Counted from the first letter of the stretch, positions 1 through 12,306 are shown. The stretch: DNA of 13,131 nucleotides from a virus (IMGVR_UViG_2703719355_000018), one strand, 5' to 3'. A program made the numbers and translations. The notes: generated by a model from the sequence alone, not told the origin.

Positions 1-1260
1 ATGGCAAAGCTGACAGATATCCAAATCAAGTCATGGATTAAGGCAGGAGAGCGCTTCGAGGGGCGCTCTGACGGCAACGGGCTATACCTTCGCTATCGAG
101 CGGGGGATAAAGTACCTGTATGGCGTTTTCGATATCAGTTCGCTGGGAAATCACGGGTAATGCTTATTGGATCTTATAGCGAAATATCCCTTTCCAAAGC
201 ACGGGAAATAGCCAAGGAATTATCCGCACGTGTAGCCCTGGGCTTCGATGTCGCCGGGGAAAAGAAAGCGCGAAAAGCGGCTGCTATAGAAAAGATGGAG
301 CGGGAGAAAAACGCGCTTCGTGTGTCAGAGCTAGCAACCGAGTATTTCGAACGGCAGATTTTGGGACGCTGGAAACATCCCGATCTTCTGCGCCGGAGAA
401 TCGATAAGGATATCAACCCACATATTGGCAACATGAAGATAGAGGACGTAAAACCCCGTCATATTGATGCGATGCTACAGAGCGTTGTTGATCGTGGCGC
501 TCCAACCGTAGCTAATGACGTTCTGCGCTGGACTAAACGCATATTCGATTATGCTATCAAGCGTCATGCACTGGAATTAAACCCAGCTGGAGCATTTGAT
601 CTGTCAGACGCTGGCGGGCAGGAAAGTAGCCGTATGCGCTGGCTGACCCGTGAAGAACTTATACGTTTTTTCCAAGCTATGCGCACTGCAAAAGGATTCA
701 GCCGCGAGAACGAGCTGACCATGAAGCTAATCCTTTGCCTGTGTTGTCGCAAAATGGAGCTGTGCGGTGCTCAGTGGGATGAATTCGACCTTGATGAAGC
801 AGTGTGGCATCTACCAGCAGAACGCGTTAAAAACGGCGACGCTATTGATATACCACTACCTCCACCTGCGGTTGGTTGGTTGAGAGAGCTTCGCACTATC
901 GCGGGCAGTGGGAGTAAATGGGTTCTCCCCGCGCGGAAGATGCAACACCGCATGATTCCCCACATTCAGGAAAGCACACTCCCCGTGGCGCTGGCAAAAG
1001 TACGCCGCGAAATGCCAGAAGTACCAAACTTCACAATTCACGATTTCAGACGTACCGCCCGCACCCATTTAGCGGCGTTGGGTGTCGATCCCGTAGTCGC
1101 AGAACGTTGCCTGAATCACCGCATTAAAGGCGTTGAGGGTATCTACAACCGCCACCAGTACTTTGAAGAACGACGGGCAGCCCTGGAACTGTGGGCGGGG
1201 CTTCTGGTTTCGCTTGAACGAGGGGAAAACTACAATGTTATTCCTTTATCTAAAATATAA
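1..1260 (+). CDS. int: Tyrosine recombinase / integrase, P4 family (419 aa)
   Basis: ORF begins at window position 1. N-terminal arm-binding-like region (GNGLYLRYRAGDKVPVWRFRY) and C-terminal catalytic region with HDFRRTARTH and YNRHQY typical of P4-type integrases. Confidence 0.93.
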   Translation: MAKLTDIQIKSWIKAGERFEGRSDGNGLYLRYRAGDKVPVWRFRYQFAGKSRVMLIGSYSEISLSKAREIAKELSARVALGFDVAGEKKARKAAAIEKMEREKNALRVSELATEYFERQILGRWKHPDLLRRRIDKDINPHIGNMKIEDVKPRHIDAMLQSVVDRGAPTVANDVLRWTKRIFDYAIKRHALELNPAGAFDLSDAGGQESSRMRWLTREELIRFFQAMRTAKGFSRENELTMKLILCLCCRKMELCGAQWDEFDLDEAVWHLPAERVKNGDAIDIPLPPPAVGWLRELRTIAGSGSKWVLPARKMQHRMIPHIQESTLPVALAKVRREMPEVPNFTIHDFRRTARTHLAALGVDPVVAERCLNHRIKGVEGIYNRHQYFEERRAALELWAGLLVSLERGENYNVIPLSKI

Positions 1261-1760: not shown

Positions 1761-2312
1761 ATGAAAGATATTACAAACATCGCAGTGACTGGCGAAGATG
1801 GCGTGGTGACGTATGCCGACGGCAGTAAAGAGGAGTTCCAGTGCAGCGGAACCGTTGCGACCATCATTGCAAGTCTTGCAACGACACTCGAGAAAGAACG
1901 CAAAATGCGCATCGCCACCGGCGACCGCCTGCGCCGCATGTACACCCGCGACAGTGATATGATTTCCCGCGGTTTGAATGGCACGTCTGCTACTTCCACG
2001 GCACCGACAGCAATGAATGCTGAGTTCATGCGTCTGGTACGTGCCGTAGCGCCGAAATACGATTCAGCACTGCCCGACGCCGACCCGCGCATCGTTGCTC
2101 TCGATGTGCTGCGCTACGCCCCTGCTGAGGCGTTCAGCGCCGTACACCCTACCCCAATGTCAGAAATCCAGCTGGATCAGGCTATCGATATACTCGAGCA
2201 GGTTGGCGACTACATGAAAGCAAACAATATCGCTCCGAAAATAATTTCTACAGGAGACGCAATCCGCAGCATCAATGCTGACAACGCCACCTTCTGGGGC
2301 AAAAAACACTAA
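1761..2312 (+). CDS. Hypothetical protein (183 aa)
   Basis: Long ORF with GAGG Shine-Dalgarno 8 nt upstream; first gene after the promoter-like region; no family recognised. Confidence 0.6.
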   Translation: MKDITNIAVTGEDGVVTYADGSKEEFQCSGTVATIIASLATTLEKERKMRIATGDRLRRMYTRDSDMISRGLNGTSATSTAPTAMNAEFMRLVRAVAPKYDSALPDADPRIVALDVLRYAPAEAFSAVHPTPMSEIQLDQAIDILEQVGDYMKANNIAPKIISTGDAIRSINADNATFWGKKH

Positions 2313-2318
2313 AGAGAT

Positions 2319-2513
2319 ATGAGCATGCCTATCTATGACCCGAAATTAGCCGCAGGCAACCCACAGCGCGCCCACCGCCCGATGCTGACCCGTCAGGATC
2401 TTGAAGCGGCAAAGGCACGCAATAACTTCGATCGCCAGAGTCGCAACCTGCAGCAACTCAACGAATCAAATGCACGGTTCTGGAGTGAACAGAATGAGAA
2501 AGCCAAACGTTAA
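2319..2513 (+). CDS. Small hypothetical protein (64 aa)
   Basis: Starts 6 nt after the stop of the upstream gene, same strand; weak RBS; alternative start at 2325. Confidence 0.4.
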   Translation: MSMPIYDPKLAAGNPQRAHRPMLTRQDLEAAKARNNFDRQSRNLQQLNESNARFWSEQNEKAKR

Positions 2514-2670
2514 GCCGGTCCTGCTGTCCGCCGAGCAGATGCAGGCCATACGCAACATTCAGGAACGTGAACGCCAGCGCTCCAATCTCGGCGTCGCTCC
2601 CACCGTTCACCAGATTGCCCGCGGCCTCATGGCTAAGGCTCTGGCCTCACTGGCAAGCGAGGGCGTGTAA
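2494..2670 (+). CDS. Small hypothetical protein (58 aa), possibly ribbon-helix-helix-like DNA-binding
   Basis: GGAG RBS 8 nt upstream of the ATG at 2494; overlaps the previous stop by 20 nt and its own stop overlaps the next start (TAATG). The 2401 start in the ORF track is rejected. Confidence 0.45.
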   Translation: MRKPNVKPVLLSAEQMQAIRNIQERERQRSNLGVAPTVHQIARGLMAKALASLASEGV

Positions 2671-3341
2671 TGGGCGCCATTCACCAGATATATGAGCAGG
2701 AAATGTTCTATAACTGGATAGGCGATGGTAAACGATGTGTAGCATTCCACGAAGCGGGCCATGCAGTAGCCGCATGGCTTATTCGCTTAGATATGCAGGT
2801 TATCGCCATTATGGATGAATCCGGCTACGTTGCTGGCGAACATGTACATGAAGCCCAGTGTTTGGGCATTGTTAAACACAGCATAATCCACAGCCACGAT
2901 CTCAGGCGTTTGCGGGAGAGTAAATCTGGTGTAGTTGGGCACGATGGCAAAGTTATCCCTTTCATACGCTACTACGCGGAAGGTATAAAGCGCGATGCAA
3001 CAAAGGCCGCTTTTGTAGCCCTCGCTGGACCAGTAAGCGAAGCCCTTTACGAAAATAACGAAATTTTCAATAAAAAGTATTCACTCCCTCACCGCTATGA
3101 CATGGCTAACGTAAATGACATGCTCGATTTAATATGTGCCACGGATAAGCAAATTAACAGGAAGTTAATGCTTTCTAAACTTGTTGAAAAGACCAAATTC
3201 CTCATGACTCAATACTGGCCGGAAGTAGGAAAAATAGCGCATTTGCTTGAGCGGGATAACATTGTTAATGGGCGCGATGTTAGCTCGCTAATCGGCCTCA
3301 ACGTCATTGACCGGGCAACGCCATTTTTGCTGGAGGAATAA
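2670..3341 (+). CDS. Predicted zinc metallopeptidase, standalone FtsH/M41-like HEAGH motif (223 aa)
   Basis: VAFHEAGHAVAAWL closely resembles the FtsH zinc-binding segment, with a downstream ALAGPVSEALY segment; no AAA ATPase domain; GAGGG RBS; start overlaps upstream stop. Confidence 0.7.
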   Translation: MGAIHQIYEQEMFYNWIGDGKRCVAFHEAGHAVAAWLIRLDMQVIAIMDESGYVAGEHVHEAQCLGIVKHSIIHSHDLRRLRESKSGVVGHDGKVIPFIRYYAEGIKRDATKAAFVALAGPVSEALYENNEIFNKKYSLPHRYDMANVNDMLDLICATDKQINRKLMLSKLVEKTKFLMTQYWPEVGKIAHLLERDNIVNGRDVSSLIGLNVIDRATPFLLEE

Positions 3342-3417
3342 CCCCTGCCCGAACTCATTCGACGATTTATTCCTCGGCGGGTAAGCTATACCGGTCTACC
3401 TAACTGCGAGCACAAGG

Positions 3418-4476
3418 ATGATGAATAATTTAATCAATCGCATTGCTTTAACCTTTCTAGCGTTAGTACTCACAGGCTGCACTGCGGGGAAAATCGATCC
3501 CGCAAAAGCGTTAACACAAATGCATATCGTCAAAAGTGATGACTATAAGAAGCGCCCCGGCTGGCCTGCGTTAGTTCGTCTGGGTACTGACGATTGTGAG
3601 ACATACAAAAGTGGCGGCGGTAGCCTCTTTAAGTGGGACGGGCTGACGTGCAACGACAAAAGCATTATCCTGGCGGTTAATAGCAAACCACAGACCATTC
3701 CAGTGTTCTACGCTGCTTACCATGAATACGGGAGCTATGGGGTCGGGGAACTATCCAATTTTGACAATAGCACCCGAACAGGTGAGGAAGCCTCGAAGAT
3801 TCTGGTTAACCTGACCACAGCATTGAACAATCCGGCAAAAGTTGACGCTATCTATGCTGACTATGAAAAGGATCGTTGGAGCATGGGACTTGGTACAGTC
3901 AACGAAAGCGATTTTAAAAAGAGCCTGGCTACTTTTGCTCAGGAACGGGATAAGCTCGCCTCTGAATACCATAGATTACGTGACGCAAACCAAAAGAGAT
4001 ACCTAGCTGAACGGGACGAACGAATCAAACGTGAGAAAGAAGAGGCCATGGCCTCTGAAAAAACGATTGATCTCGTGTTATGGCAGAATCCAACAGTTGA
4101 GCAACAGATGGTTGTTGACGCTCTGCACACTATTAAATTCACAATAAGAAACGATGGCGTGGCATACGCTAACGGTCGCCGATTTATGTCAATTGCCGGG
4201 CTGGAATATCTCAGGAATAGCCTAGCTCTGAGTATGGAGTCATGTTCAGACGCTGGAGCATATGTTGGTGATACGGCATTAAATCGCGCATGTATTCAGG
4301 GCTTGGCGAGGAACATTGTTGAGTGGGGGAAAACCGCCAACGACCGTTCTATTTCAGACAGAGCATGGAACGCAGCCGCAATGGATGGCAGCATTAACTA
4401 CAACCCAATCAAGTATGAAATCCTGTTTTCACATTGGGCAGGAATGGCCCGTGTCTACTCTGCTCGTGGATATTAA
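3418..4476 (+). CDS. Predicted lipoprotein of unknown function (352 aa)
   Basis: N-terminal signal peptide ending in lipobox LTGC (MMNNLINRIALTFLALVLTGC); AAGGA RBS; followed by an intrinsic terminator. Confidence 0.7.
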   Translation: MMNNLINRIALTFLALVLTGCTAGKIDPAKALTQMHIVKSDDYKKRPGWPALVRLGTDDCETYKSGGGSLFKWDGLTCNDKSIILAVNSKPQTIPVFYAAYHEYGSYGVGELSNFDNSTRTGEEASKILVNLTTALNNPAKVDAIYADYEKDRWSMGLGTVNESDFKKSLATFAQERDKLASEYHRLRDANQKRYLAERDERIKREKEEAMASEKTIDLVLWQNPTVEQQMVVDALHTIKFTIRNDGVAYANGRRFMSIAGLEYLRNSLALSMESCSDAGAYVGDTALNRACIQGLARNIVEWGKTANDRSISDRAWNAAAMDGSINYNPIKYEILFSHWAGMARVYSARGY

Positions 4477-4526
4477 ACATTGCGCTTCGAACTGATAAAT
4501 TTAAGCTTAATCAGTACATTACTGTT

Positions 4527-4552
4527 AGCCCGCATTTTAGCGGGCTTTCTTT
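4527..4552 (+). terminator. Rho-independent terminator after the lipoprotein gene
   Basis: Stem AGCCCGC/GCGGGCT with 6-nt loop, followed by TTCTTT. Confidence 0.6.
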
Positions 4553-4618
4553 AGTTGAGCTTTGTACAAGATGTAAATTTACATCCTGATTATCCAGTGC
4601 GCCGTAAAAGCTGGCAAT

Positions 4619-5731
4619 CTATTTAACTAAACGTAAATGTGACGGGCGTATCCCCGATTCCTGGGTACTCGATTTTCCACCATTGATAGCTTCCATAAAG
4701 AAGCTGTTACTGAAAGTAAGTGCACTCACTTCGTCCGCTGGTAACCTCAACTGCTCGAGAATATCTCCCCTTTTAACGCCTTTGCTGCGTAGGGCTGAAA
4801 ACACTTTATCCAGCACTAATGACTTTTCACGTTCAGCAATCCCTTGAGGCTCACTCGTACGATATCCACGGCGAGCAAGTTCTATCGATAGCTGTCGATA
4901 ATGCCATTCGGTAGATAAACCGACATCAAACGTACGGCGCACCAAAGCCGCCAATGATACCCGCCAGTTCTTTTTTAACGAGATGAGTAGATCAAGCGAT
5001 GGCATTCTTGGCACTAAAGCTAAAATACTACGCTCAGGCATCAAAAAGGCCGATGCGAATCGATCTGCATCCTGCTCAGCTTGGCGGCCGTTGTTAGTTG
5101 AATGTTTATGGAGAACCAAGTGCCCCAGTTCATGAGCTGCATCGAATCGACTACGCTCCGGCGTTTTCATTGTATTCAAAAGCACAAAAGGTTTTTCATC
5201 CATCCAGAACGAAAAGGCGTCTACTTCAATACAATTTTCCGCGAGAGAGAACACACGGACCCCATTAGCTTCAAGAAGATGGACCATGTTAGAGATGGAT
5301 AATTCACCTATCCCCCAACTTTCTCTAACCACGCGAGCAGCTCGCTCAGGCTCAGAATAACCATCGAAACTACAATCAGGTACATTAGGTTTAGGAAGCT
5401 TAAACTGCCCGTCAATCCAAGCTGATAGCTCTTGCGCGAGCTTTCCGGCTCCGAGTGCTGAGTCCCTTTTCTGTGCCGTCAACTTTGTCATTGCACGGAA
5501 ACTAACGGCTTCTGGCGACAGAGTAGGTACATCCCTGTCGAAGAAGAACTCAATCGGATAGCCCAGAACAGCAGAAATCCGTTCCATGGTATCGCTGGCT
5601 ATGGCATCAAAAATCCCTGCTTTCTCGTAATTCGAAATCGTCTTACTAGTCAATTCTGTAGCTTCAGCTAAAGCTCTTTGTGTCAGGCCTCTCCGTTCTC
5701 TGGCTATACGTAAACGCTCTGAATTAAACAT
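4619..5731 (-). CDS. Fused XRE-family HTH / ImmA-IrrE (COG2856) zinc metallopeptidase regulator (370 aa)
   Basis: N-terminal HTH (LRIARERRGLTQRALAEATELTSKTISNYE); HExxH as HELGHLVLH, followed by the family-typical FASAFLMPE segment. Confidence 0.85.
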   Translation of the reverse strand: MFNSERLRIARERRGLTQRALAEATELTSKTISNYEKAGIFDAIASDTMERISAVLGYPIEFFFDRDVPTLSPEAVSFRAMTKLTAQKRDSALGAGKLAQELSAWIDGQFKLPKPNVPDCSFDGYSEPERAARVVRESWGIGELSISNMVHLLEANGVRVFSLAENCIEVDAFSFWMDEKPFVLLNTMKTPERSRFDAAHELGHLVLHKHSTNNGRQAEQDADRFASAFLMPERSILALVPRMPSLDLLISLKKNWRVSLAALVRRTFDVGLSTEWHYRQLSIELARRGYRTSEPQGIAEREKSLVLDKVFSALRSKGVKRGDILEQLRLPADEVSALTFSNSFFMEAINGGKSSTQESGIRPSHLRLVK

Positions 5732-5740
5732 GGTGCATAT

Positions 5741-6460
5741 TTAGCCTGTTTTTAAAATGTCGAGATCGATATCCGGTGTAAACTGCGGTACATCACCGTT
5801 CTGAACAATAGGGTCAGGTTGATGAGGAGCAATAATTAAACGTGTGGAGAAGGCATTAACTACATTCTTGTTATTGTATGAAATCGGGCGTGAAAGCTCA
5901 GCTCGGATCCCCACGCGCTCATCCCCGTCAATTTCATAAAAATCGTAAAGTAAAAACCATAAGTCCAGTCCGATTTTATTCGGTAGCAGTGGTATAACAT
6001 CACCTTCCGGCATGTCTAAATCCAGCTTAAGCTGGCTATCATCCAGGATAAGCTCACCCTGACCCGGGGTGTTATTATGGATTAACCCCATCAGCTCACA
6101 AGTAAAATCACCTTTCTTCATGCGAGACTCAGGAAATCCATGAACCAAACCTGTCTGATCACACCCCCGGCAGAGGTAAAGGGCAACTTTATCACTTACA
6201 GTCAGTTCAACATTTCGCAGAGACAGACGTTTGTAGCCTTTCGGAGCCAGAATGTCGCGGGCTGCACTCACCCCCTCACCATAGAAATATTGCCCACGTG
6301 AGGTCTTGGGGTGATTCTGAGTCGTCGAATAACGACCAGACAAGCCACGCTCAAGAATACGCCTGAGATCACTTTGGCTCAGATTCAGGGACTGCAGGTA
6401 GGATTCAACATCGTCAGGATCTGCCAAAACAATGGTTTTTGCGAGATTATGAGAGTACAT
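5741..6460 (-). CDS. Hypothetical protein (239 aa), first gene of a two-gene operon with the HTH-ImmA regulator; candidate effector/toxin
   Basis: AAGAGG RBS 8 nt upstream of the ATG; stop lies 9 nt before the downstream start; no family recognised. Confidence 0.65.
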   Translation of the reverse strand: MYSHNLAKTIVLADPDDVESYLQSLNLSQSDLRRILERGLSGRYSTTQNHPKTSRGQYFYGEGVSAARDILAPKGYKRLSLRNVELTVSDKVALYLCRGCDQTGLVHGFPESRMKKGDFTCELMGLIHNNTPGQGELILDDSQLKLDLDMPEGDVIPLLPNKIGLDLWFLLYDFYEIDGDERVGIRAELSRPISYNNKNVVNAFSTRLIIAPHQPDPIVQNGDVPQFTPDIDLDILKTG

Positions 6461-6489
6461 CGGAAAAGCCTCTTATATATTTTCTATTT

Positions 6490-6518
6490 TTTATACCTCA
6501 TTTGAGGTTTAAAAACAA
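6490..6518 (-). promoter_or_regulatory. Sigma70-like promoter for the minus-strand operon with an embedded palindromic operator
   Basis: On the minus strand: -35 TTGTTT (6513-6518), 17-nt spacer, -10 TATAAA (6490-6495); 14-bp palindrome ACCTCA-TT-TGAGGT (6495-6508) fills the spacer. Confidence 0.5.
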
Positions 6519-6526
6519 GAAAATCA

Positions 6527-6542
6527 CTGTATAAAATCTCAG
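6527..6542. promoter_or_regulatory. LexA-like box CTGTATAAAATCTCAG (CTG-N10-CAG) in the divergent intergenic region
   Basis: Left half matches the LexA consensus CTGTATAT; right half keeps only CAG. Confidence 0.3.
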
Positions 6543-6666
6543 AGATAATCGACAGATTAGAGAGTATTATCCATATTGAGGCTATCCCGACGGGGAGAAA
6601 AGCGACTACGCCTTGCCGCCTGCCTCCCCCATTATCTCAAGGCGGTGACGTGTAAGGCGAACGTGC

Positions 6667-7485
6667 ATGAGTGGTTTTGTTTTTCCTTTCGAGTTTCAAC
6701 CAGTGCCAGAGGCATTGGCAATCCTGAACGACATGGATATTGCTCCCTTTGAAATAACCGAAAAACACCTAGAAAGCTGGTGGGCGGAGGGGAAAATTCA
6801 ACTGTGCTTTAACTGGGGTAGATTCTGGAAAGCTGGCTTAGCCGACGAACTGGCAAAAACAGAAGGCTACGCAGAATTAGGGGCGAAAGAAAAGATCACT
6901 GCGCTCAATGCTGTATCCGCTTCCCCCGAGGCTAACATCAGTCTTGTCGTGCCATCTTACAGCGATTTAAGTTTTATCTGGCGCGGGCATAGCGACGATC
7001 CACTCCCCTGTATCGAGGCCAAACCCTACGGGCTTGATCAACCTTTTGTTATCAAACGCGTTCCTCACACCTGCGAGGACTATTGCGATTACGGTACGCA
7101 GCATTGGGAAAAACTTTACCATTCGCTGCACATTTCGAGTATGGTGCTGCCGCGTGCTGAAGCTGAAAAAATTTATTATCTCTGCAACCCTACAGCTATT
7201 CCAGGCATGGACGAAAAGACGGCATCTGCAGTATCTGCGAAAACGGTTAACTATCTGGCCACTGCTTTAAAAGCTTTTATTCACATCCATTACGGGGCTG
7301 ATGTGGCGGACAACCTGCGCAAACATCTTGAGGATCCCACCAGTGATATACGGAAAGACTTTGCGAATAAAGGGATCAAAGCGCCAGGTGGAAAAGCGCT
7401 GGCCAGCCATCTGAAAAATATTCTGATTGAAGTTTTACCCGCGCTCGACAACGTCGATGTGGAGAGTGACGCTGGTAATACATAA
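6667..7485 (+). CDS. Hypothetical protein (272 aa), Cys/His-rich central segment
   Basis: Long ORF divergent from the minus-strand operon; AAGG RBS-like sequence upstream; HTCEDYCDYGTQHW segment; no family recognised. Confidence 0.6.
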   Translation: MSGFVFPFEFQPVPEALAILNDMDIAPFEITEKHLESWWAEGKIQLCFNWGRFWKAGLADELAKTEGYAELGAKEKITALNAVSASPEANISLVVPSYSDLSFIWRGHSDDPLPCIEAKPYGLDQPFVIKRVPHTCEDYCDYGTQHWEKLYHSLHISSMVLPRAEAEKIYYLCNPTAIPGMDEKTASAVSAKTVNYLATALKAFIHIHYGADVADNLRKHLEDPTSDIRKDFANKGIKAPGGKALASHLKNILIEVLPALDNVDVESDAGNT

Positions 7486-7546
7486 CCCCGGAACATTCCA
7501 TATATTCCGACGCATTAGAATATTCCAGAGCCCATCACCATAACCT

Positions 7547-7584
7547 TGCGATTACCTTCTCACTCAATAGCAGGTAATCGCATG
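7547..7584 (+). promoter_or_regulatory. Stem-loop covering the alpA ribosome-binding site and start codon
   Basis: 10-bp inverted repeat TGCGATTACC (7547-7556) / GGTAATCGCA (7573-7582), 16-nt loop; the 3-prime arm contains the AGGT SD-like motif and the A of the ATG. Confidence 0.5.
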
Positions 7585-7794
7585 AAATCGCAAACTTTCA
7601 CCTTTCCCACCAATGGCAACGCACGAGCCAAACAAGTGGCGCACTATCTTGGAGTGCATATCAGCACCGTATGGCGCTATGCAAAACGTCCTGATTTTCC
7701 AAAACCCCACCAGTTAACCGACGGCGTGACCGTCTTTGACGCCGCAGCTATTCGCCAATGGAACAAGCAAAAAACCGGGGGTGAGAATGCTTAA
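7582..7794 (+). CDS. alpA: AlpA-family transcriptional regulator / excisionase-like protein (70 aa)
   Basis: VAHYLGVHISTVWRYAKRPDFPKP matches the AlpA/phage-excisionase HTH signature; start taken at the internal ATG at 7582 rather than 7546. Confidence 0.85.
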   Translation: MKSQTFTFPTNGNARAKQVAHYLGVHISTVWRYAKRPDFPKPHQLTDGVTVFDAAAIRQWNKQKTGGENA

Positions 7795-7848
7795 CGCGAC
7801 CGTGAGCACACCCTGCACGACAGCCGTTCGATCGCCATTGTTGGCGAG

Positions 7849-7983
7849 TCAGGTTTTCGGCTCAATACCTACGTTAAGTAGCTTTTCCCGGCAGGCATCT
7901 TTAACCCATGAGCTGAAATTACCTTTACCCGCAGCAGCATTTATCTGCTTTAAAAGTTCATCCTCAAAGCGGATGTGCTTCAT
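7849..7983 (-). CDS. Ribbon-helix-helix (Arc/CopG-like) putative repressor (44 aa; alternative start at 8031 gives 60 aa)
   Basis: MKHIRFEDELLKQINAAAGKGNFSSWVKDACREKL has a strand-helix-loop-helix layout; divergent from the replication operon across a region with twin palindromes. Confidence 0.45.
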   Translation of the reverse strand: MKHIRFEDELLKQINAAAGKGNFSSWVKDACREKLLNVGIEPKT

Positions 7984-8031
7984 GGTGCTACCCGAACGGT
8001 CAAACGGTTTTTTTTCACTTTTACCTTGCAT

Positions 8032-8078
8032 TGGTAACTACCACTCATATAATGAACCAAAGCATGGTAACTACCATG
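8032..8078. promoter_or_regulatory. Two copies of palindromic operator TGGTA-AC-TACCA (8032-8043; 8065-8076, extended to CATGGTAACTACCATG at 8063-8078) flanking a TATAAT (8047-8052)
   Basis: Read directly; lies between the divergent RHH gene and the replication operon; possible -35 TTGCAT at 8026-8031. Confidence 0.55.
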
Positions 8079-8170
8079 CGCGATTTTATCAAGAGATAAA
8101 TACAGCGAAGCCCGGCAGTGCGGGAACACTAACCGGGCCTCTGACCAACAACGTTACGGAGACTAACGCT

Positions 8171-8371
8171 ATGGCTAAGCCGCAGTGTACCCAAACTCAC
8201 CCCAAATATCAGTATCGTTTTATGGCGCTCGATCGCGCTGACCGTCAGGCGAAACCCTGCAAAATCATTGTCGAGGCCACCAGCGAGCACGAAGCGCGTA
8301 AAGTGCTGGCTCCTCACTACATCCTGTCACTGTCCGCCGTTTTGCCAGTTCAGGAGGTGAGCCATGTTTAA
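8171..8371 (+). CDS. Small hypothetical protein (66 aa), first gene of the replication operon
   Basis: GGAG RBS 9 nt upstream; stop overlaps the next start. The 211-aa ORF from 7736 is rejected. Confidence 0.45.
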   Translation: MAKPQCTQTHPKYQYRFMALDRADRQAKPCKIIVEATSEHEARKVLAPHYILSLSAVLPVQEVSHV

Positions 8372-8558
8372 CGTCATTGTCACGGTCACCTATCACTTTT
8401 CGGGAACGATCCGTCGTTTTGCTATTCCGGAACGTTTCAATAATCGTGAGCTCGCAGAGAAAGCGGCGCAGCAGTTAACCCATACCAGCTATCTGGATGA
8501 TGGAGTGAGCAGAATTGTGACCCACGCGGCGGAAGTAGTGGAGGTGCGCCATGTATGA
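8364..8558 (+). CDS. Small hypothetical protein (64 aa)
   Basis: AGGAGG RBS 6 nt upstream; start overlaps upstream stop (ATGTTTAA) and stop overlaps the next start. Confidence 0.6.
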   Translation: MFNVIVTVTYHFSGTIRRFAIPERFNNRELAEKAAQQLTHTSYLDDGVSRIVTHAAEVVEVRHV

Positions 8559-8739
8559 CGCCTACCTGAACCCAAAGGACGCACTCCGTCCGATCGCCGT
8601 TGCACTCGAGGCTGCGCAGTTTATCGCGCTTGACCCGGAGAATACCGATTTAGCCCATGAGCTGATCGCCTGGGCACTTGAAACAGCCGCGCGTGCCTCA
8701 GCTGCGCAACGTAACACCCCGGAGGTGGACAATGCTTAA
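8551..8739 (+). CDS. Small hypothetical protein (62 aa)
   Basis: GGAGG RBS 7 nt upstream; coupled to both neighbours. Confidence 0.6.
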   Translation: MYDAYLNPKDALRPIAVALEAAQFIALDPENTDLAHELIAWALETAARASAAQRNTPEVDNA

Positions 8740-9040
8740 TCTCAATACATGGAATCTTTTCACGCTGCCGCTGAACGGTGGCGCAGCTGAGACAGCGCCG
8801 GACGATCTGCGTCTGCTGGCCGCTGTGGGGGACGAGGCTCGCAACGACTACCTGCGCGGTGTAAGCGCCATCGGCAATCTGATCTTCTGGGCATGTGATA
8901 ACCCCAACTACACCGACCATCAAGCTGACCTGCCAGCGCTGGGCGCATTCCTGAAACATACCGCTGATATGGCGCGCGCTGCCGAATTCATGGCAGGACA
9001 TCTGGACTCACTGGCTGACGGCAAAGAGGGAGGCAAATAA
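8732..9040 (+). CDS. Hypothetical protein (102 aa)
   Basis: GGAGG RBS 6 nt upstream of the ATG at 8732; start overlaps the previous stop (ATGCTTAA); the 8678 start is rejected. Confidence 0.6.
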   Translation: MLNLNTWNLFTLPLNGGAAETAPDDLRLLAAVGDEARNDYLRGVSAIGNLIFWACDNPNYTDHQADLPALGAFLKHTADMARAAEFMAGHLDSLADGKEGGK

Positions 9041-9261
9041 TGCCACGCAAACATCGCTCATCAAGCAACCTGATCAAATTAATGGAACGCCAGAAAGGTA
9101 TAGGGCGCGACGATATCCAGATCGCAGATAATCGCCCTACATTCATGCCGTACGAGCCGAACGGAACCTACGCTACAAACCGCCATACCCGCCGTATGCT
9201 ACGCAAGCTCCACGGCATCCAGGCAAAAAGAATGTGTGATCTGAAAGGAGGTCAGAAATGA
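9040..9261 (+). CDS. Small basic hypothetical protein (73 aa)
   Basis: GAGGGAGG RBS; start overlaps the previous stop (TAATG); stop overlaps the primase start (ATGA). Confidence 0.55.
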   Translation: MPRKHRSSSNLIKLMERQKGIGRDDIQIADNRPTFMPYEPNGTYATNRHTRRMLRKLHGIQAKRMCDLKGGQK

Positions 9262-11672
9262 GTGGATTCGATCACCTGATGGAGCAGGGGCAGAAACGCA
9301 CCCCTGCTCGTTTTACTGCAAATAGCTTTTCTGACCTGTGCAACGCTATTCTATCGCATCGTGTGCAAATTTCCATCACACAGGAAATGACGGATGAAGA
9401 ACGGCGCAAAGAAAAGCAGAAACTGTACTGGTTCTCGGCAACTACCCAGCAGGACGGGCAGCGACGTAAACCCGAAAACATGGCACCGTGTGCTTTCGGT
9501 ATGCTGGACATTGACGGCAGCACTCCCGGTGCAATCACAGCACTTGTACAGGTGTTCCGGCGATACTCAATGCTGGTGTACCAGACGGCCAGCTATACGG
9601 CGGATGAACCTCGTCTGCGTATTGTGTGCGAGCTTTCCCGAGCGGTTGAATCTGACTACCGCCGAGCGACAGGCGAATCCATAGAAACTTTGTTGATGCA
9701 GGAGGCTGGATTCTCATTCGCCAGCCTGGCGGATAAGAAAGCACGCTGGGAGAACGGCAGCGATTATGTTGTCTTTGACCGCAATGTATACGGCGCTCAA
9801 AGCTATTGCTACTGTCCACACACTGGAGCGAAAGCCCAGAATTACGCGGGCGCGGTAATCGACGTAGGGGCGTTACCGGAACCCGCCCAGCCACCAGCGA
9901 AGGCGGCCAAAAGCAAGGCAAAGAAACAGCGCCAGCGTGACGCCGCGGCGGTAATAGATGCTGATTTTGACGATCTGAGCGCCGGACCGGATAACTTCCT
10001 TATCGCCGACCTGCGCAGCGCACTCTGGTTTCCCTCCATGCTGCAAAAGGCATGGGACAATGGGGCGTGGATTGAGCAGGGCTACCGCCTTGCATCTCTC
10101 AAAGGCACCGATTTTGAGGACGACGCGCGGCAACTGTGGGTCGAGTGGTCATTGACCGCAGCGGATGGCTGGCCTGATGAAGAACTTGATGAAGTCGCGG
10201 CACAACGCTGGAATGGTCTCGCCCCTGACAAAACCAGCTATAAAGCTATTTTTACTGATGCTCAGGCGCAGGGGTGGAATAATCCGGGCAAATGGCGAGC
10301 AAAGGCCGCGTACATTGAGAAAATGGCCCCCAGCACACGCGGTGAACTGCTGGCGCAATATTACGGCAACGTATGCCTGAAAGCTGATGGCAACATGGTT
10401 TATCACTATACCGGGCAGGGGTGGGAGCACATCGCCGATGCCGAGTTGCGCCGCCAGCTTTCGCAGATTTTCAAAGATAACGGGGTCCCCTTTACACCGT
10501 ACGAGGTTAAAAGCGCGATTGAGGCTATGGGAATGCTTCTGCCTTTAATAGGAGAAACTCCTCGTAACCTGATTGGCTTTGCCAACGGCGTTTATGATCT
10601 CGAGGCGCAGCGATTCCGCCCCCACTGCCCAGACGATTGGCTGACCAGCCATAACGGCGTTGAATACACGCAGCCGGTTAAAGGCGAAACCCTGAAAAAC
10701 AATGCCCCAAACTTCTGGCGCTGGCTGCATCATTCCGCAGGGGGCGACTTCGACAAAATGGAGAGAATCAAAGCCGCTCTGTATATGGTGCTGGCAAACC
10801 GCTACGACTGGCAACTGTTCATCGAGGTTACCGGTGCTGGTGGCAGTGGTAAAAGCGTGTTCACGGGTATTGCACGTATGCTGACGGGCGAACTACACGC
10901 CACCAGCGGCACAATGGAGGACATGGACACCGCGCGCGAACGCGCATCTTTTGTCGGAAAAAGCCTGATCACCCTACCCGACCAAGCAACATATACGGGT
11001 TCCGGGCCGGGTATCAAGGCTATAACGGGCGGCGACGTGGTAAGGATCGACCCAAAGCACGAAAAGCCATTCCATACGGTTATTCGCGCCGTTGTCATCG
11101 CAACAAACAACGAACCTATGCGTTTCACCGAACGACAAGGCGGGATATCGCGGCGCCGGGTTATTTTCCCGTTTAACCATGAAGTGCCGGAGGCGGAACG
11201 TGATCCCCATCTGCTCGATAAAATTAAAGCCGAACTGCCGGTAATCGTCCGTGGTCTGCTGATTGACTTCGAACAGCCAGGCAAAGCCAAATCGCTACTT
11301 ATCGCGCAGCGTGATTCAGCGGAAGCGCTGCAGGTGAAGAACGATAACGACCCGATGTATGGCTTTTGCTCTTACCTGCTAGGTTTGCCGAATCCCGAGG
11401 GCATGTACATGGGCGATGGGCGCATGGCGCGAGAGCCACGCATCTACCTCTATCATGCTTATCTGGCCTATCTGGAAGCCTACGGTTATCAGAGAACCCC
11501 CACCCTACCGAAGTTCAGCGGAGATTTACGGGACACGCTCAAAGCCTTTGGTATTACTCTGGACAGTAAAAAGAGTAAAAAGGGCAAAAGATATAACGTC
11601 AATTTGTCTGACAGGGCACAAGAATGGCTGGGAGAAGACGAACTCTCAGCTGTGCCCGACACATTGCAGTAA
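9258..11672 (+). CDS. DNA primase-helicase, P4 alpha-like phage/plasmid type (804 aa)
   Basis: Walker A GAGGSGKS followed by a P-loop NTPase region (VVIATNNEP) in the C-terminal half; size and position after alpA as in P4-like elements; AGGAGG RBS. Confidence 0.88.
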   Translation: MSGFDHLMEQGQKRTPARFTANSFSDLCNAILSHRVQISITQEMTDEERRKEKQKLYWFSATTQQDGQRRKPENMAPCAFGMLDIDGSTPGAITALVQVFRRYSMLVYQTASYTADEPRLRIVCELSRAVESDYRRATGESIETLLMQEAGFSFASLADKKARWENGSDYVVFDRNVYGAQSYCYCPHTGAKAQNYAGAVIDVGALPEPAQPPAKAAKSKAKKQRQRDAAAVIDADFDDLSAGPDNFLIADLRSALWFPSMLQKAWDNGAWIEQGYRLASLKGTDFEDDARQLWVEWSLTAADGWPDEELDEVAAQRWNGLAPDKTSYKAIFTDAQAQGWNNPGKWRAKAAYIEKMAPSTRGELLAQYYGNVCLKADGNMVYHYTGQGWEHIADAELRRQLSQIFKDNGVPFTPYEVKSAIEAMGMLLPLIGETPRNLIGFANGVYDLEAQRFRPHCPDDWLTSHNGVEYTQPVKGETLKNNAPNFWRWLHHSAGGDFDKMERIKAALYMVLANRYDWQLFIEVTGAGGSGKSVFTGIARMLTGELHATSGTMEDMDTARERASFVGKSLITLPDQATYTGSGPGIKAITGGDVVRIDPKHEKPFHTVIRAVVIATNNEPMRFTERQGGISRRRVIFPFNHEVPEAERDPHLLDKIKAELPVIVRGLLIDFEQPGKAKSLLIAQRDSAEALQVKNDNDPMYGFCSYLLGLPNPEGMYMGDGRMAREPRIYLYHAYLAYLEAYGYQRTPTLPKFSGDLRDTLKAFGITLDSKKSKKGKRYNVNLSDRAQEWLGEDELSAVPDTLQ

Positions 11673-12156: not shown

Positions 12157-12245
12157 CCCCGCAACTTCAATTCTGTTTTGCGTGCCTGCTCCAGATTTTG
12201 CGATGTTTTTTTGCCCAGCACACTGAGAACGTGAGATACTCACAA

Positions 12246-12261
12246 CTGTATATAAATACAG
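12246..12261. promoter_or_regulatory. LexA (SOS) box CTGTATATAAATACAG upstream of dinD
   Basis: Exact CTGT-N8-ACAG consensus, 45 nt upstream of the dinD start; dinD is a known LexA-regulated gene. Confidence 0.85.
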
Positions 12262-12306
12262 TTACAGATTTACTTTCTTTGCAATCGATATCACATGGAG
12301 TGGGCA

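Follow-up and report, generated by a model that had tools for sequence, protein, structure and literature searches.

Several toxin-antitoxin (TA) modules of Escherichia coli, such as dinJ-yafQ, tisB/istR-1, symER and hokE, are SOS-regulated, and autoregulation through an operator of their own is usual for type II antitoxins. Here we describe a 13,131-nucleotide stretch of DNA, IMGVR_UViG_2703719355_000018 (the window), an E. coli chromosomal island with its insertion site between yicC and dinD, and within it a LexA-like CTG-N10-CAG motif situated between the leftward TA operon rmrTA and a rightward open reading frame (ORF) of 272 residues. In common with the SOS-regulated modules, rmrTA has a TA operon promoter with a LexA-type box beside any autoregulation, but it differs from them in being a phage-defence TA whose antitoxin combines a helix-turn-helix (HTH) with an M78 peptidase. 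The family in question, RosmerTA, is an anti-phage TA for which toxicity, neutralisation and defence are known from other members; as in the described system (Millman et al. 2022), RmrT comes before RmrA, with strong PADLOC matches and no structural difference, and the cassette is carried in the defence-rich cargo region of a satellite-like island. The first-pass annotation had assigned the motif to the promoter of the 272-residue gene; we consider it probable instead that the motif is a degenerate copy of an operator of the rmrTA promoter and not of the 272-residue gene, which would form a separate unit under the control of an RNA leader.

Two features of the locus have described counterparts in the response to DNA damage. 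In the CapH/CapP, ImmR/ImmA and DdrO/IrrE pairs, DNA damage leads to derepression of defence or mobile-element genes, and RmrA likewise joins an XRE-type HTH (HTH_3, N-terminal) with an M78/ImmA-type metallopeptidase (Peptidase_M78) according to Pfam, also matching capP (3e-20) and capH (2e-6) in PADLOC; it differs in being a single fused protein that acts as the antitoxin. The "ImmA-type DNA-damage-responsive regulator" of the first-pass annotation is this RmrA antitoxin, for which a response to damage is suggested only by family-level analogy with ImmA, IrrE and CapP. In CTX-phi, the rstA/rstR promoter of a mobile element is co-controlled by host LexA and the element's own repressor RstR (PMC3323433), which resembles the arrangement that we infer for RosmerTA, with an HTH repressor of the element and adjacent host LexA on one promoter; CTX-phi differs in that this was shown experimentally and for the lysogeny switch of a filamentous phage rather than for a TA defence operon. 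A literature search limited to titles and abstracts found no report of LexA control of RosmerTA.

The motif fits CTG-N10-CAG with a perfect left half, as originally read, and its geometry is also as first given: 8 nt lie between its start and the predicted -35 of rmrTA, and 124 nt between its end and the ATG of the 272-residue ORF. The evidence that ties it to rmrTA comes from a set of 27 cassettes with RmrT 72-100% identical, 24 of which are from a metagenome scan, each with a full-length RmrA behind. CTG-N10-CAG was found at the matching place in 25 of the 27 loci, with GTG-N10-CAG in the remaining two. The 20-mer containing it starts about 84 nt before the rmrT ATG (-84 to -86, or -70 in locus L014, where the start codon is annotated differently), and the distance to the -35 is identical in all 25 box-bearing loci, with CAG ending 8 nt before TTGTTT; in a Yersinia cassette (L043, 64% identity), the motif is present 1 nt closer (7 nt). 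Together with L043, these loci represent 14 unrelated upstream contexts, all with full-length RmrA, and 12 of the 14 carry the box. Among the 23 distinct promoters, in which the -35 and -10 hexamers are invariant, conservation is at least 90% for CTG, 100% for CAG and 80-100% for T10, A13/T14 and T19, as opposed to only 30-60% for the other spacer columns and the upstream flank. These conserved positions match the preferences of LexA, and the motif shares with the E. coli boxes of dinD, polB and the weak dinB a 16-bp CTG-N10-CAG core and an AT-rich spacer. The first-pass annotation had thus recognized a genuine LexA-shaped element, selected and positionally conserved, and this conservation in related cassettes shows that its occurrence is not due to chance.

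The strength of the window copy is another matter. We rebuilt the Lewis heterology index (HI) matrix by regression on 140 published E. coli K-12 sequence/HI pairs (PSOSP Table S1, PMC12527982), yielding an additive, symmetric model with a residual of 5e-5, equivalent to exact recovery of the matrix. The canonical LexA box of dinD, AACTGTATATAAATACAGTT (12244-12263), which lies 32 nt before the dinD start and just downstream of the island's insertion site, served as an internal positive control with an HI of 3.34. The 20-mer of the motif, CACTGTATAAAATCTCAGAG (6525-6544), has an HI of 16.50 and ranks fourth in the window. Among tested E. coli sites, all with HI of 12.6 or less bind LexA while those at 15.5, 18.4 and 18.9 are non-binders (PMC12527982); in K-12, 51 listed sites lie between 12.6 and 16.5, with no tested binder above 12.6 (PMC12527982 tables). 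The heterology-index calculation proposed in the first-pass annotation therefore puts the site outside the validated range and beyond a site that does not bind, contradicting the statement that it is similar to weaker natural SOS boxes and making SOS inducibility of the cargo doubtful here. Relative to the predicted rmrTA promoter, the window copy also sits upstream of the -35 and not, as the E. coli boxes above, across the core promoter; for the candidate rightward promoters it falls at or just upstream of the -35. The bare pattern is common (8 matches in the window vs. 3.0 expected), and a CTG-N10-CAG within the integrase coding sequence (569-588, CACTGGAATTAAACCCAGCT), at HI 13.64 better than the site at 6527-6542, shows that mid-range scores arise easily; a site with one mismatch reaches 14.0. 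Sites at HI 16.5 or less are expected 0.32 times per shuffled window, but shuffling the 206-nt intergenic region produces one in only 0.2% of cases, so that a local chance origin is unlikely; a relaxed scan allowing mismatches in CTG and CAG found nothing better in that region or upstream of alpA. Judged on its own sequence alone, the window site is a poor LexA candidate.

The sister cassettes score better. The 18 distinct 20-mers have HI values of 10.5-16.5 with a median of 12.9, 8 of them at 12.6 or less, and the window copy has the highest HI, i.e. is the weakest, of all 18; the Yersinia box, AACTGAATAACCATACAGTG, has an HI of 9.76. Nine variants of sister cassettes fall within HI 9.8-12.6, as compared to 12.1 for polB and 12.6 for the weakest validated site. 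The island-borne copies (window, L005, L006, L011, L016 and L038) all have the poor distal half CTCTGA; they comprise two variants, both with CTG and CAG intact, in which one spacer base changed from C to A gives HI 16.33. Another E. coli island, located beside ffs and with neither the 272-residue gene nor alpA, carries a RosmerTA cassette of 79% identity that keeps the promoter block, with similarity to the window ending just past the box (TACTGTATGAATAGTCAGAT, HI 11.15). The boxes of L043, L019, L017 and L014 span HI 9.8-11.2, with L014 at 11.15.

The box adjoins a second, more widespread element. A 46-bp imperfect palindrome covers both the -35 and -10 of rmrTA, and the CTG-N10-CAG motif lies directly next to it, at about -44 to -59 relative to the predicted start (~6483). 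This promoter was read from the sequence and was omitted by a stricter promoter scan, as its -35 matches at only 3 of 6 positions. The palindrome architecture recurs with altered core sequences in Vibrio, Shewanella, Sphingomonas and Mesorhizobium homologues, and the distant homologues, alpha-proteobacterial ones included, all keep TTCTTGTTTTT, a central palindrome (CCTCAAATGAGG, CATCGATCGATG or CTCGATCGAG) and AGAAAA. We surmise that the palindrome is probably the operator through which RmrA, by way of its HTH, represses its own operon. RmrT has 43 homologue clusters, and searches for it in phage and plasmid collections gave distant matches or none. Across its homologues the palindrome is universal, whereas the box is confined to one lineage, being missing in Xenorhabdus, a 58%-identical locus, Vibrio europaeus, Shewanella, Sphingomonas and Mesorhizobium homologues. 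Since Xenorhabdus and L045 keep the identical palindrome and have lost the box, the two are separable, and comparison at the sequence level shows the box to be a selected element of the promoter of this RosmerTA lineage. A Photobacterium homologue has CTG-N10-CAT, and the Vibrio alginolyticus plasmid NZ_CP054704.1 (L040 2316-2336) has a perfect ACTGT-N9-ACAGT that exceeds a LexA box by one base and lies 16 nt before the -35, i.e. 8 nt further upstream than the enterobacterial box; it represents either another kind of operator or a displaced relative of that box. No alpha-type LexA box (GTTC-N7-GTTC) was found at the Sphingomonas and Mesorhizobium RmrT homologues, a test that does not separate LexA from RmrA.

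With respect to the 272-residue gene, the box is not a constant companion: CTG-N10-CAG is found upstream of the homologue in 4 of 10 loci, all with the same RosmerTA cassette (HI 16.50 or 16.33), and is absent in the other 6, and it travels with rmrTA into contexts without the gene, so that its assignment to the promoter of this gene is not supported. When islands with different cargo are compared, similarity begins at ~6573, the junction of backbone and cargo, with the box on the cargo side. An example is the sister island of enteropathogenic E. coli (EPEC) E2348/69 (L015, NC_011601.1 4064118-4078221) at the same yicC-dinD site, which has a different RosmerTA type (215 + 407 residues), a 226-residue member of the ORF family and an int-alpA RNA of 39.4 bits, and no CTG-N10-CAG in its intergenic region. 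No evidence was found for SOS control of the 272-residue gene. In one studied E. coli phage-inducible chromosomal island (PICI), the alpA promoter responded to the helper phage, whereas mitomycin C by itself had no such effect (PMC11773190), which fits with SOS not being the direct trigger.

What all 10 loci do have in common is an upstream leader of ~95 nt running to the ATG, which in 8 of them contains the int-alpA RNA motif (Rfam RF02996) above its gathering score, at 39-52 bits. As in Gram-negative PICIs such as EcCIMP1, this RNA is located between int and alpA; Rfam files it as a small RNA, whereas here it appears to be the 5' leader of the 272-residue ORF family. In 13 of 13 loci (the window and 12 related ones), a family ORF comes within about 25-60 nt after the leader, or after an exact match to its core, and no terminator-like site lies between the int-alpA RNA and the 272-residue ORF; because the ORF follows this closely without an intervening terminator, the RNA would behave as a 5' leader. 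Rightward transcription may start from either of the candidate promoter elements listed in Table 1, and our reading of the alignment places a -10-like hexamer 6-8 nt before GAGGC in most homologous loci. Another plus-strand candidate inside the box, TTTAAA-TATAAA, was set aside, as it is not kept in L014 (TATGAA), a locus with no rightward gene. In an alignment of 8 int-alpA sequences 88% of the cells pair, with zero compensatory changes, the sequences being too similar. RNAalifold prefers an alternative in which CGCCUUGCCGCC (CGCCUU) of the leader pairs with two AAGGCG boxes (6639-6644 and 6654-6659), ACGCCUUGCCGCCU in the 3' half of the leader (within 6607-6659) being complementary to both; speculatively, this pairing would hide the ribosome-binding site of the 272-residue ORF. 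A role of the leader as anti-Shine-Dalgarno stays speculative, as covariation is absent and the complementarity is not kept in Erwinia and Izhakiella.

The preferred reading can now be set out in full. We postulate that the HTH domain of RmrA autorepresses rmrTA via the palindrome, and that the upstream CTG-N10-CAG would provide an extra input for a dimeric repressor of the host, LexA being the most plausible one, given that the conserved positions are LexA contact positions, that half of the variants are within the validated range and that all hosts use the consensus. From its UP-element position, the box could confer DNA-damage-dependent relief of repression on those sister cassettes with HI of 9.8-12.6. 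This position would be unusual for LexA and would imply interference with the C-terminal domain of the RNA polymerase alpha subunit at the UP element, or cooperation with RmrA; the LexA site of CTX-phi is also said to lie upstream of the core promoter. In the window the site appears to have drifted to HI 16.5, where LexA binding is probably weak or none. We would put the chance that LexA binds the better sister sites at about even, and regard meaningful LexA control of the window copy as improbable. Weighing against a role of LexA are the borderline HI values of the variants, the weak statistical weight of HI given the composition (null 17.3 +/- 4.2), the unequal conservation of the two half-sites, the Vibrio variant with N11 spacing, and the fact that some hosts sharing this LexA consensus lack the box. 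The 272-residue gene, on the other hand, would be a gene of the island backbone, transcribed rightward behind the int-alpA leader and directly before alpA, with expression governed by this leader and the island's own circuitry and not by SOS.

Among other explanations, the box might have nothing to do with LexA and serve RmrA or some other factor as a second operator, or else be part of an UP element or of a requirement of promoter architecture. Compatible with this explanation are its place in the UP-element zone, with a spacing to the -35 that hardly varies (8 nt, or 7 nt in L043), the better conservation of the promoter-proximal half, the N11 spacing of the Vibrio variant, which is incompatible with LexA, and the general knowledge that TA antitoxins commonly bind several operators. 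However, the arms of the motif are unlike those of the universal palindrome presumably read by RmrA, from which it is separable in Xenorhabdus and L045; moreover, the distal CTG is kept amid unconserved columns exactly 10 nt from CAG, the contact pattern of LexA, and an UP element would not conserve G/C triplets. We hold this explanation to be possible but less likely than the preferred reading. Much less likely still, the motif would serve the promoter of the 272-residue gene as a weak but functional LexA operator, with the gene, alpA and the island firing on SOS. The 3' end of the motif (6542) is 6 nt before the -35 TCGACA of the scan and adjoins the -35 position implied by TATTAT, close enough for a LexA dimer on the motif to make contact with the rightward promoter; of the half-sites, the left one is perfect, and a site this good is rare among intergenic shuffles. 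These points are outweighed by an HI exceeding that of the non-binder at 15.5, the 6 homologue loci without the box, its association with rmrTA where the gene is missing, the int-alpA leader as the conserved upstream element with the backbone/cargo junction to the right of the box, and the helper-phage response of the alpA promoter mentioned above. The remaining explanation, that the motif came into the window along with the cassette and is now a relic without function, bound by nothing, would be in keeping with its having the highest HI of the 18 variants and with the poor distal half shared by island-borne copies, but we give it very little credence in view of the intact CTG and CAG in both island variants despite the change in the spacer.

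The 272-residue ORF is, as judged by its conservation, a real gene: it persists among homologues whose N-terminal parts share only ~40% identity, and both its start (MxDFVFPF) and a Shine-Dalgarno-like AAGGCG (6654-6659) placed 7 nt ahead of the ATG are conserved. The family is small: a set of 5.8 billion proteins contains 24 homologue clusters at 90% identity, a profile search of 1.84 billion proteins finds 92 representatives, and a scan of genome contigs gives 2 loci. Among the sources of the loci are Salmonella, Citrobacter, Erwinia, Izhakiella, EPEC E2348/69, metagenomes and two IMG/VR contigs. At all recovered loci, the homologue is directly upstream of alpA in islands of the order integrase-[cargo]-ORF-alpA-primase, and the gene is thus not free cargo, as the first-pass annotation supposed, but a backbone gene fixed before alpA behind the int-alpA leader. 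The left-hand neighbours vary, being this RosmerTA cassette, a second RosmerTA type, a split HTH + M78 pair, or a lone HTH gene; in Erwinia the neighbour is a divergent 417-residue ORF in the position of the integrase, with no cargo between. On the Erwinia endophytica contig (L003), a ColE1-type RNAI (RF00106, 76.6 bits; 3414-3516) is located a few hundred bases from this ORF (3969-5222), which hints at an integrated or adjacent remnant of a plasmid replicon.

The protein consists of two swappable modules, an N-terminal one of ~190 residues that occurs in several types and a C-terminal one of ~80 residues (SAKTVNYLATALKAFIHIHYGADVA...KAPGGKALA) that is nearly invariant across types. As the family is mosaic (P0003-P0007, P0011 and P0022), with one N-module joined to two or three unrelated C-modules and another N-module joined to the same C-module, recombination occurs inside the gene near residue 180-190; many profile matches cover the C-module only. 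The remote homology search suggested by the first-pass annotation gave no profile match: the protein has no matches in Pfam, PADLOC, PHROGs or NCBIfam, nor did Pfam at E of 5 or less on all 22 family members, a sequence-profile search of the PDB (nothing meaningful) or Foldseek against PDB and BFVD (nothing at E <1) yield any. Alignment with the AlpA of the island by hhalign showed no similarity (probability 0.1), and a Pfam scan of ten distant relatives of the C-module revealed no informative N-terminal domains. What remains is a weak fold similarity of this orphan family to winged helices of the MerR/AlpA type; from the predicted secondary-structure string (strand, helix, helix, strand) and the weak fold hits, we infer that residues 9-50 may form a winged HTH. 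The product would most likely be a modular regulatory protein with an N-terminal winged-helix domain, and its fixed position before alpA, the structured leader and the immunity-like swapping of modules lead us to suggest, with modest confidence, a regulatory DNA-binding role in the switch of the island.

The remaining features of the window are listed in Table 1. The stretch from 6200 to 7600 recurs with at least 99% identity in 10 of 5,426 complete E. coli genomes; O55:H7 DEC5B and O45:H2 FWSEC0003 are carriers of the island. Integrase, AlpA and P4-family primase, which the island shares with Gram-negative PICIs, are in the canonical PICI/P4-like order, and the primase is separated from chromosomal dinD by only ~620 nt. 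No phage structural genes were found among the window ORFs scanned, and, as a difference from Gram-negative PICIs, no packaging or capsid-redirection genes (P4 sid/delta/psu, PICI rpp/terS) could be identified among the large ORFs scanned, the small ORFs at ~7800-9260 not having been scanned individually. The island appears satellite-like, of the PICI/P4-like integrase-AlpA-primase type. The five cargo ORFs had zero PADLOC, PHROG or NCBIfam matches, the sole signal among them being a weak HExxH-type match of the 223-residue protein to Peptidase_M41 (E 3e-4); as the block recurs in sister islands (L011, and partly L005 and E2348/69), it is a candidate for an uncharacterised defence or accessory module. 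The operon rmrTA has its toxin gene first, 9 nt from rmrA on the same strand. An inverted repeat at 7547-7582, with 14-nt arms (TGCGATTACCTTCT / AGCAGGTAATCGCA) that are 93% complementary, ends with its right arm on the first base of the alpA start codon, and a hairpin formed from it could hide the alpA ribosome-binding site.

Table 1. Features of the 13,131-nt window, with positions counted from its first nucleotide.
Feature	Position	Strand	Remarks
Tyrosine integrase gene	1-1260		
Five co-directional cargo ORFs	1761-4476		Unannotated; 183, 62, 58, 223 and 352 aa
rmrA, RosmerTA antitoxin, 370 aa	4619..5731	-	PADLOC RmrA, E 6.3e-151
rmrT, RosmerTA toxin, 239 aa	5741..6460	-	PADLOC RmrT PDLC03935, E 1.1e-52
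Imperfect palindrome, 46 bp	6479..6524	strandless	22 + 22-nt arms, 86% complementary; centre CCTCATTTGAGG (6496-6507)
Predicted sigma-70 promoter of rmrTA	6490..6518	-	-35 TTGTTT 6518-6513, 17-nt spacer, -10 TATAAA 6495-6490
CTG-N10-CAG motif CTGTATAAAATCTCAG	6527..6542	strandless	Outermost conserved element of the rmrTA promoter block
Candidate rightward promoter elements	6549..6577	+	TCGACA-17-CATATT (scan), or -10-like TATTAT 6565-6570, 7 nt before the first stem of the RNA
int-alpA RNA motif (Rfam RF02996)	6575..6642	+	41.1 bits vs. gathering score 35.8; putative 5' leader of the 272-aa ORF
272-aa ORF	6667..7485	+	Orphan family, two modules
alpA-like HTH regulator/excisionase gene, 70 aa	7582..7794	+	PHROG 66, E 1.7e-8; Pfam Phage_AlpA on orthologues
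Icd-like gene and several small ORFs	between alpA-like gene and primase		
P4-family primase gene	9258-11672		
Chromosomal dinD	from 12295		

Each component of this locus is of a known kind, i.e. an SOS-type box, RosmerTA, the int-alpA RNA and a PICI/P4-like island. What appears to be new, as far as checked, is a RosmerTA promoter with a two-operator architecture that includes a LexA-shaped upstream element, and the int-alpA RNA as consistently the 5' leader of a modular ORF preceding alpA. For the window itself, the outcome is a correction, as the box had been assigned to the wrong gene and this copy is probably too weak to matter. A bolder scenario, which we consider unlikely as a whole, is that an Enterobacterales lineage of RosmerTA, an abortive-infection TA, is under dual control, by RmrA via the palindrome and by LexA via an operator in the UP position, so that damage or prophage induction primes defence, with the same site adjoining the rightward promoter of the int-alpA leader/272-residue ORF/AlpA module. 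With its structured leader RNA and, behind it, a two-module winged-helix protein, this module would then be a previously unrecognised switch of a family of minimal PICI/P4-like islands. If LexA does bind the better sister sites, a defence TA would be wired directly to the SOS repressor of the host, adding to the damage-sensing regulators of immune operons, CapH/CapP, CapW and CapK/CapS. The orphan Rfam motif int-alpA, for its part, gains a genetic setting as the likely leader of an uncharacterised ORF before alpA, the master regulator of Gram-negative PICIs, and this setting would offer a testable entry into how small islands switch on.

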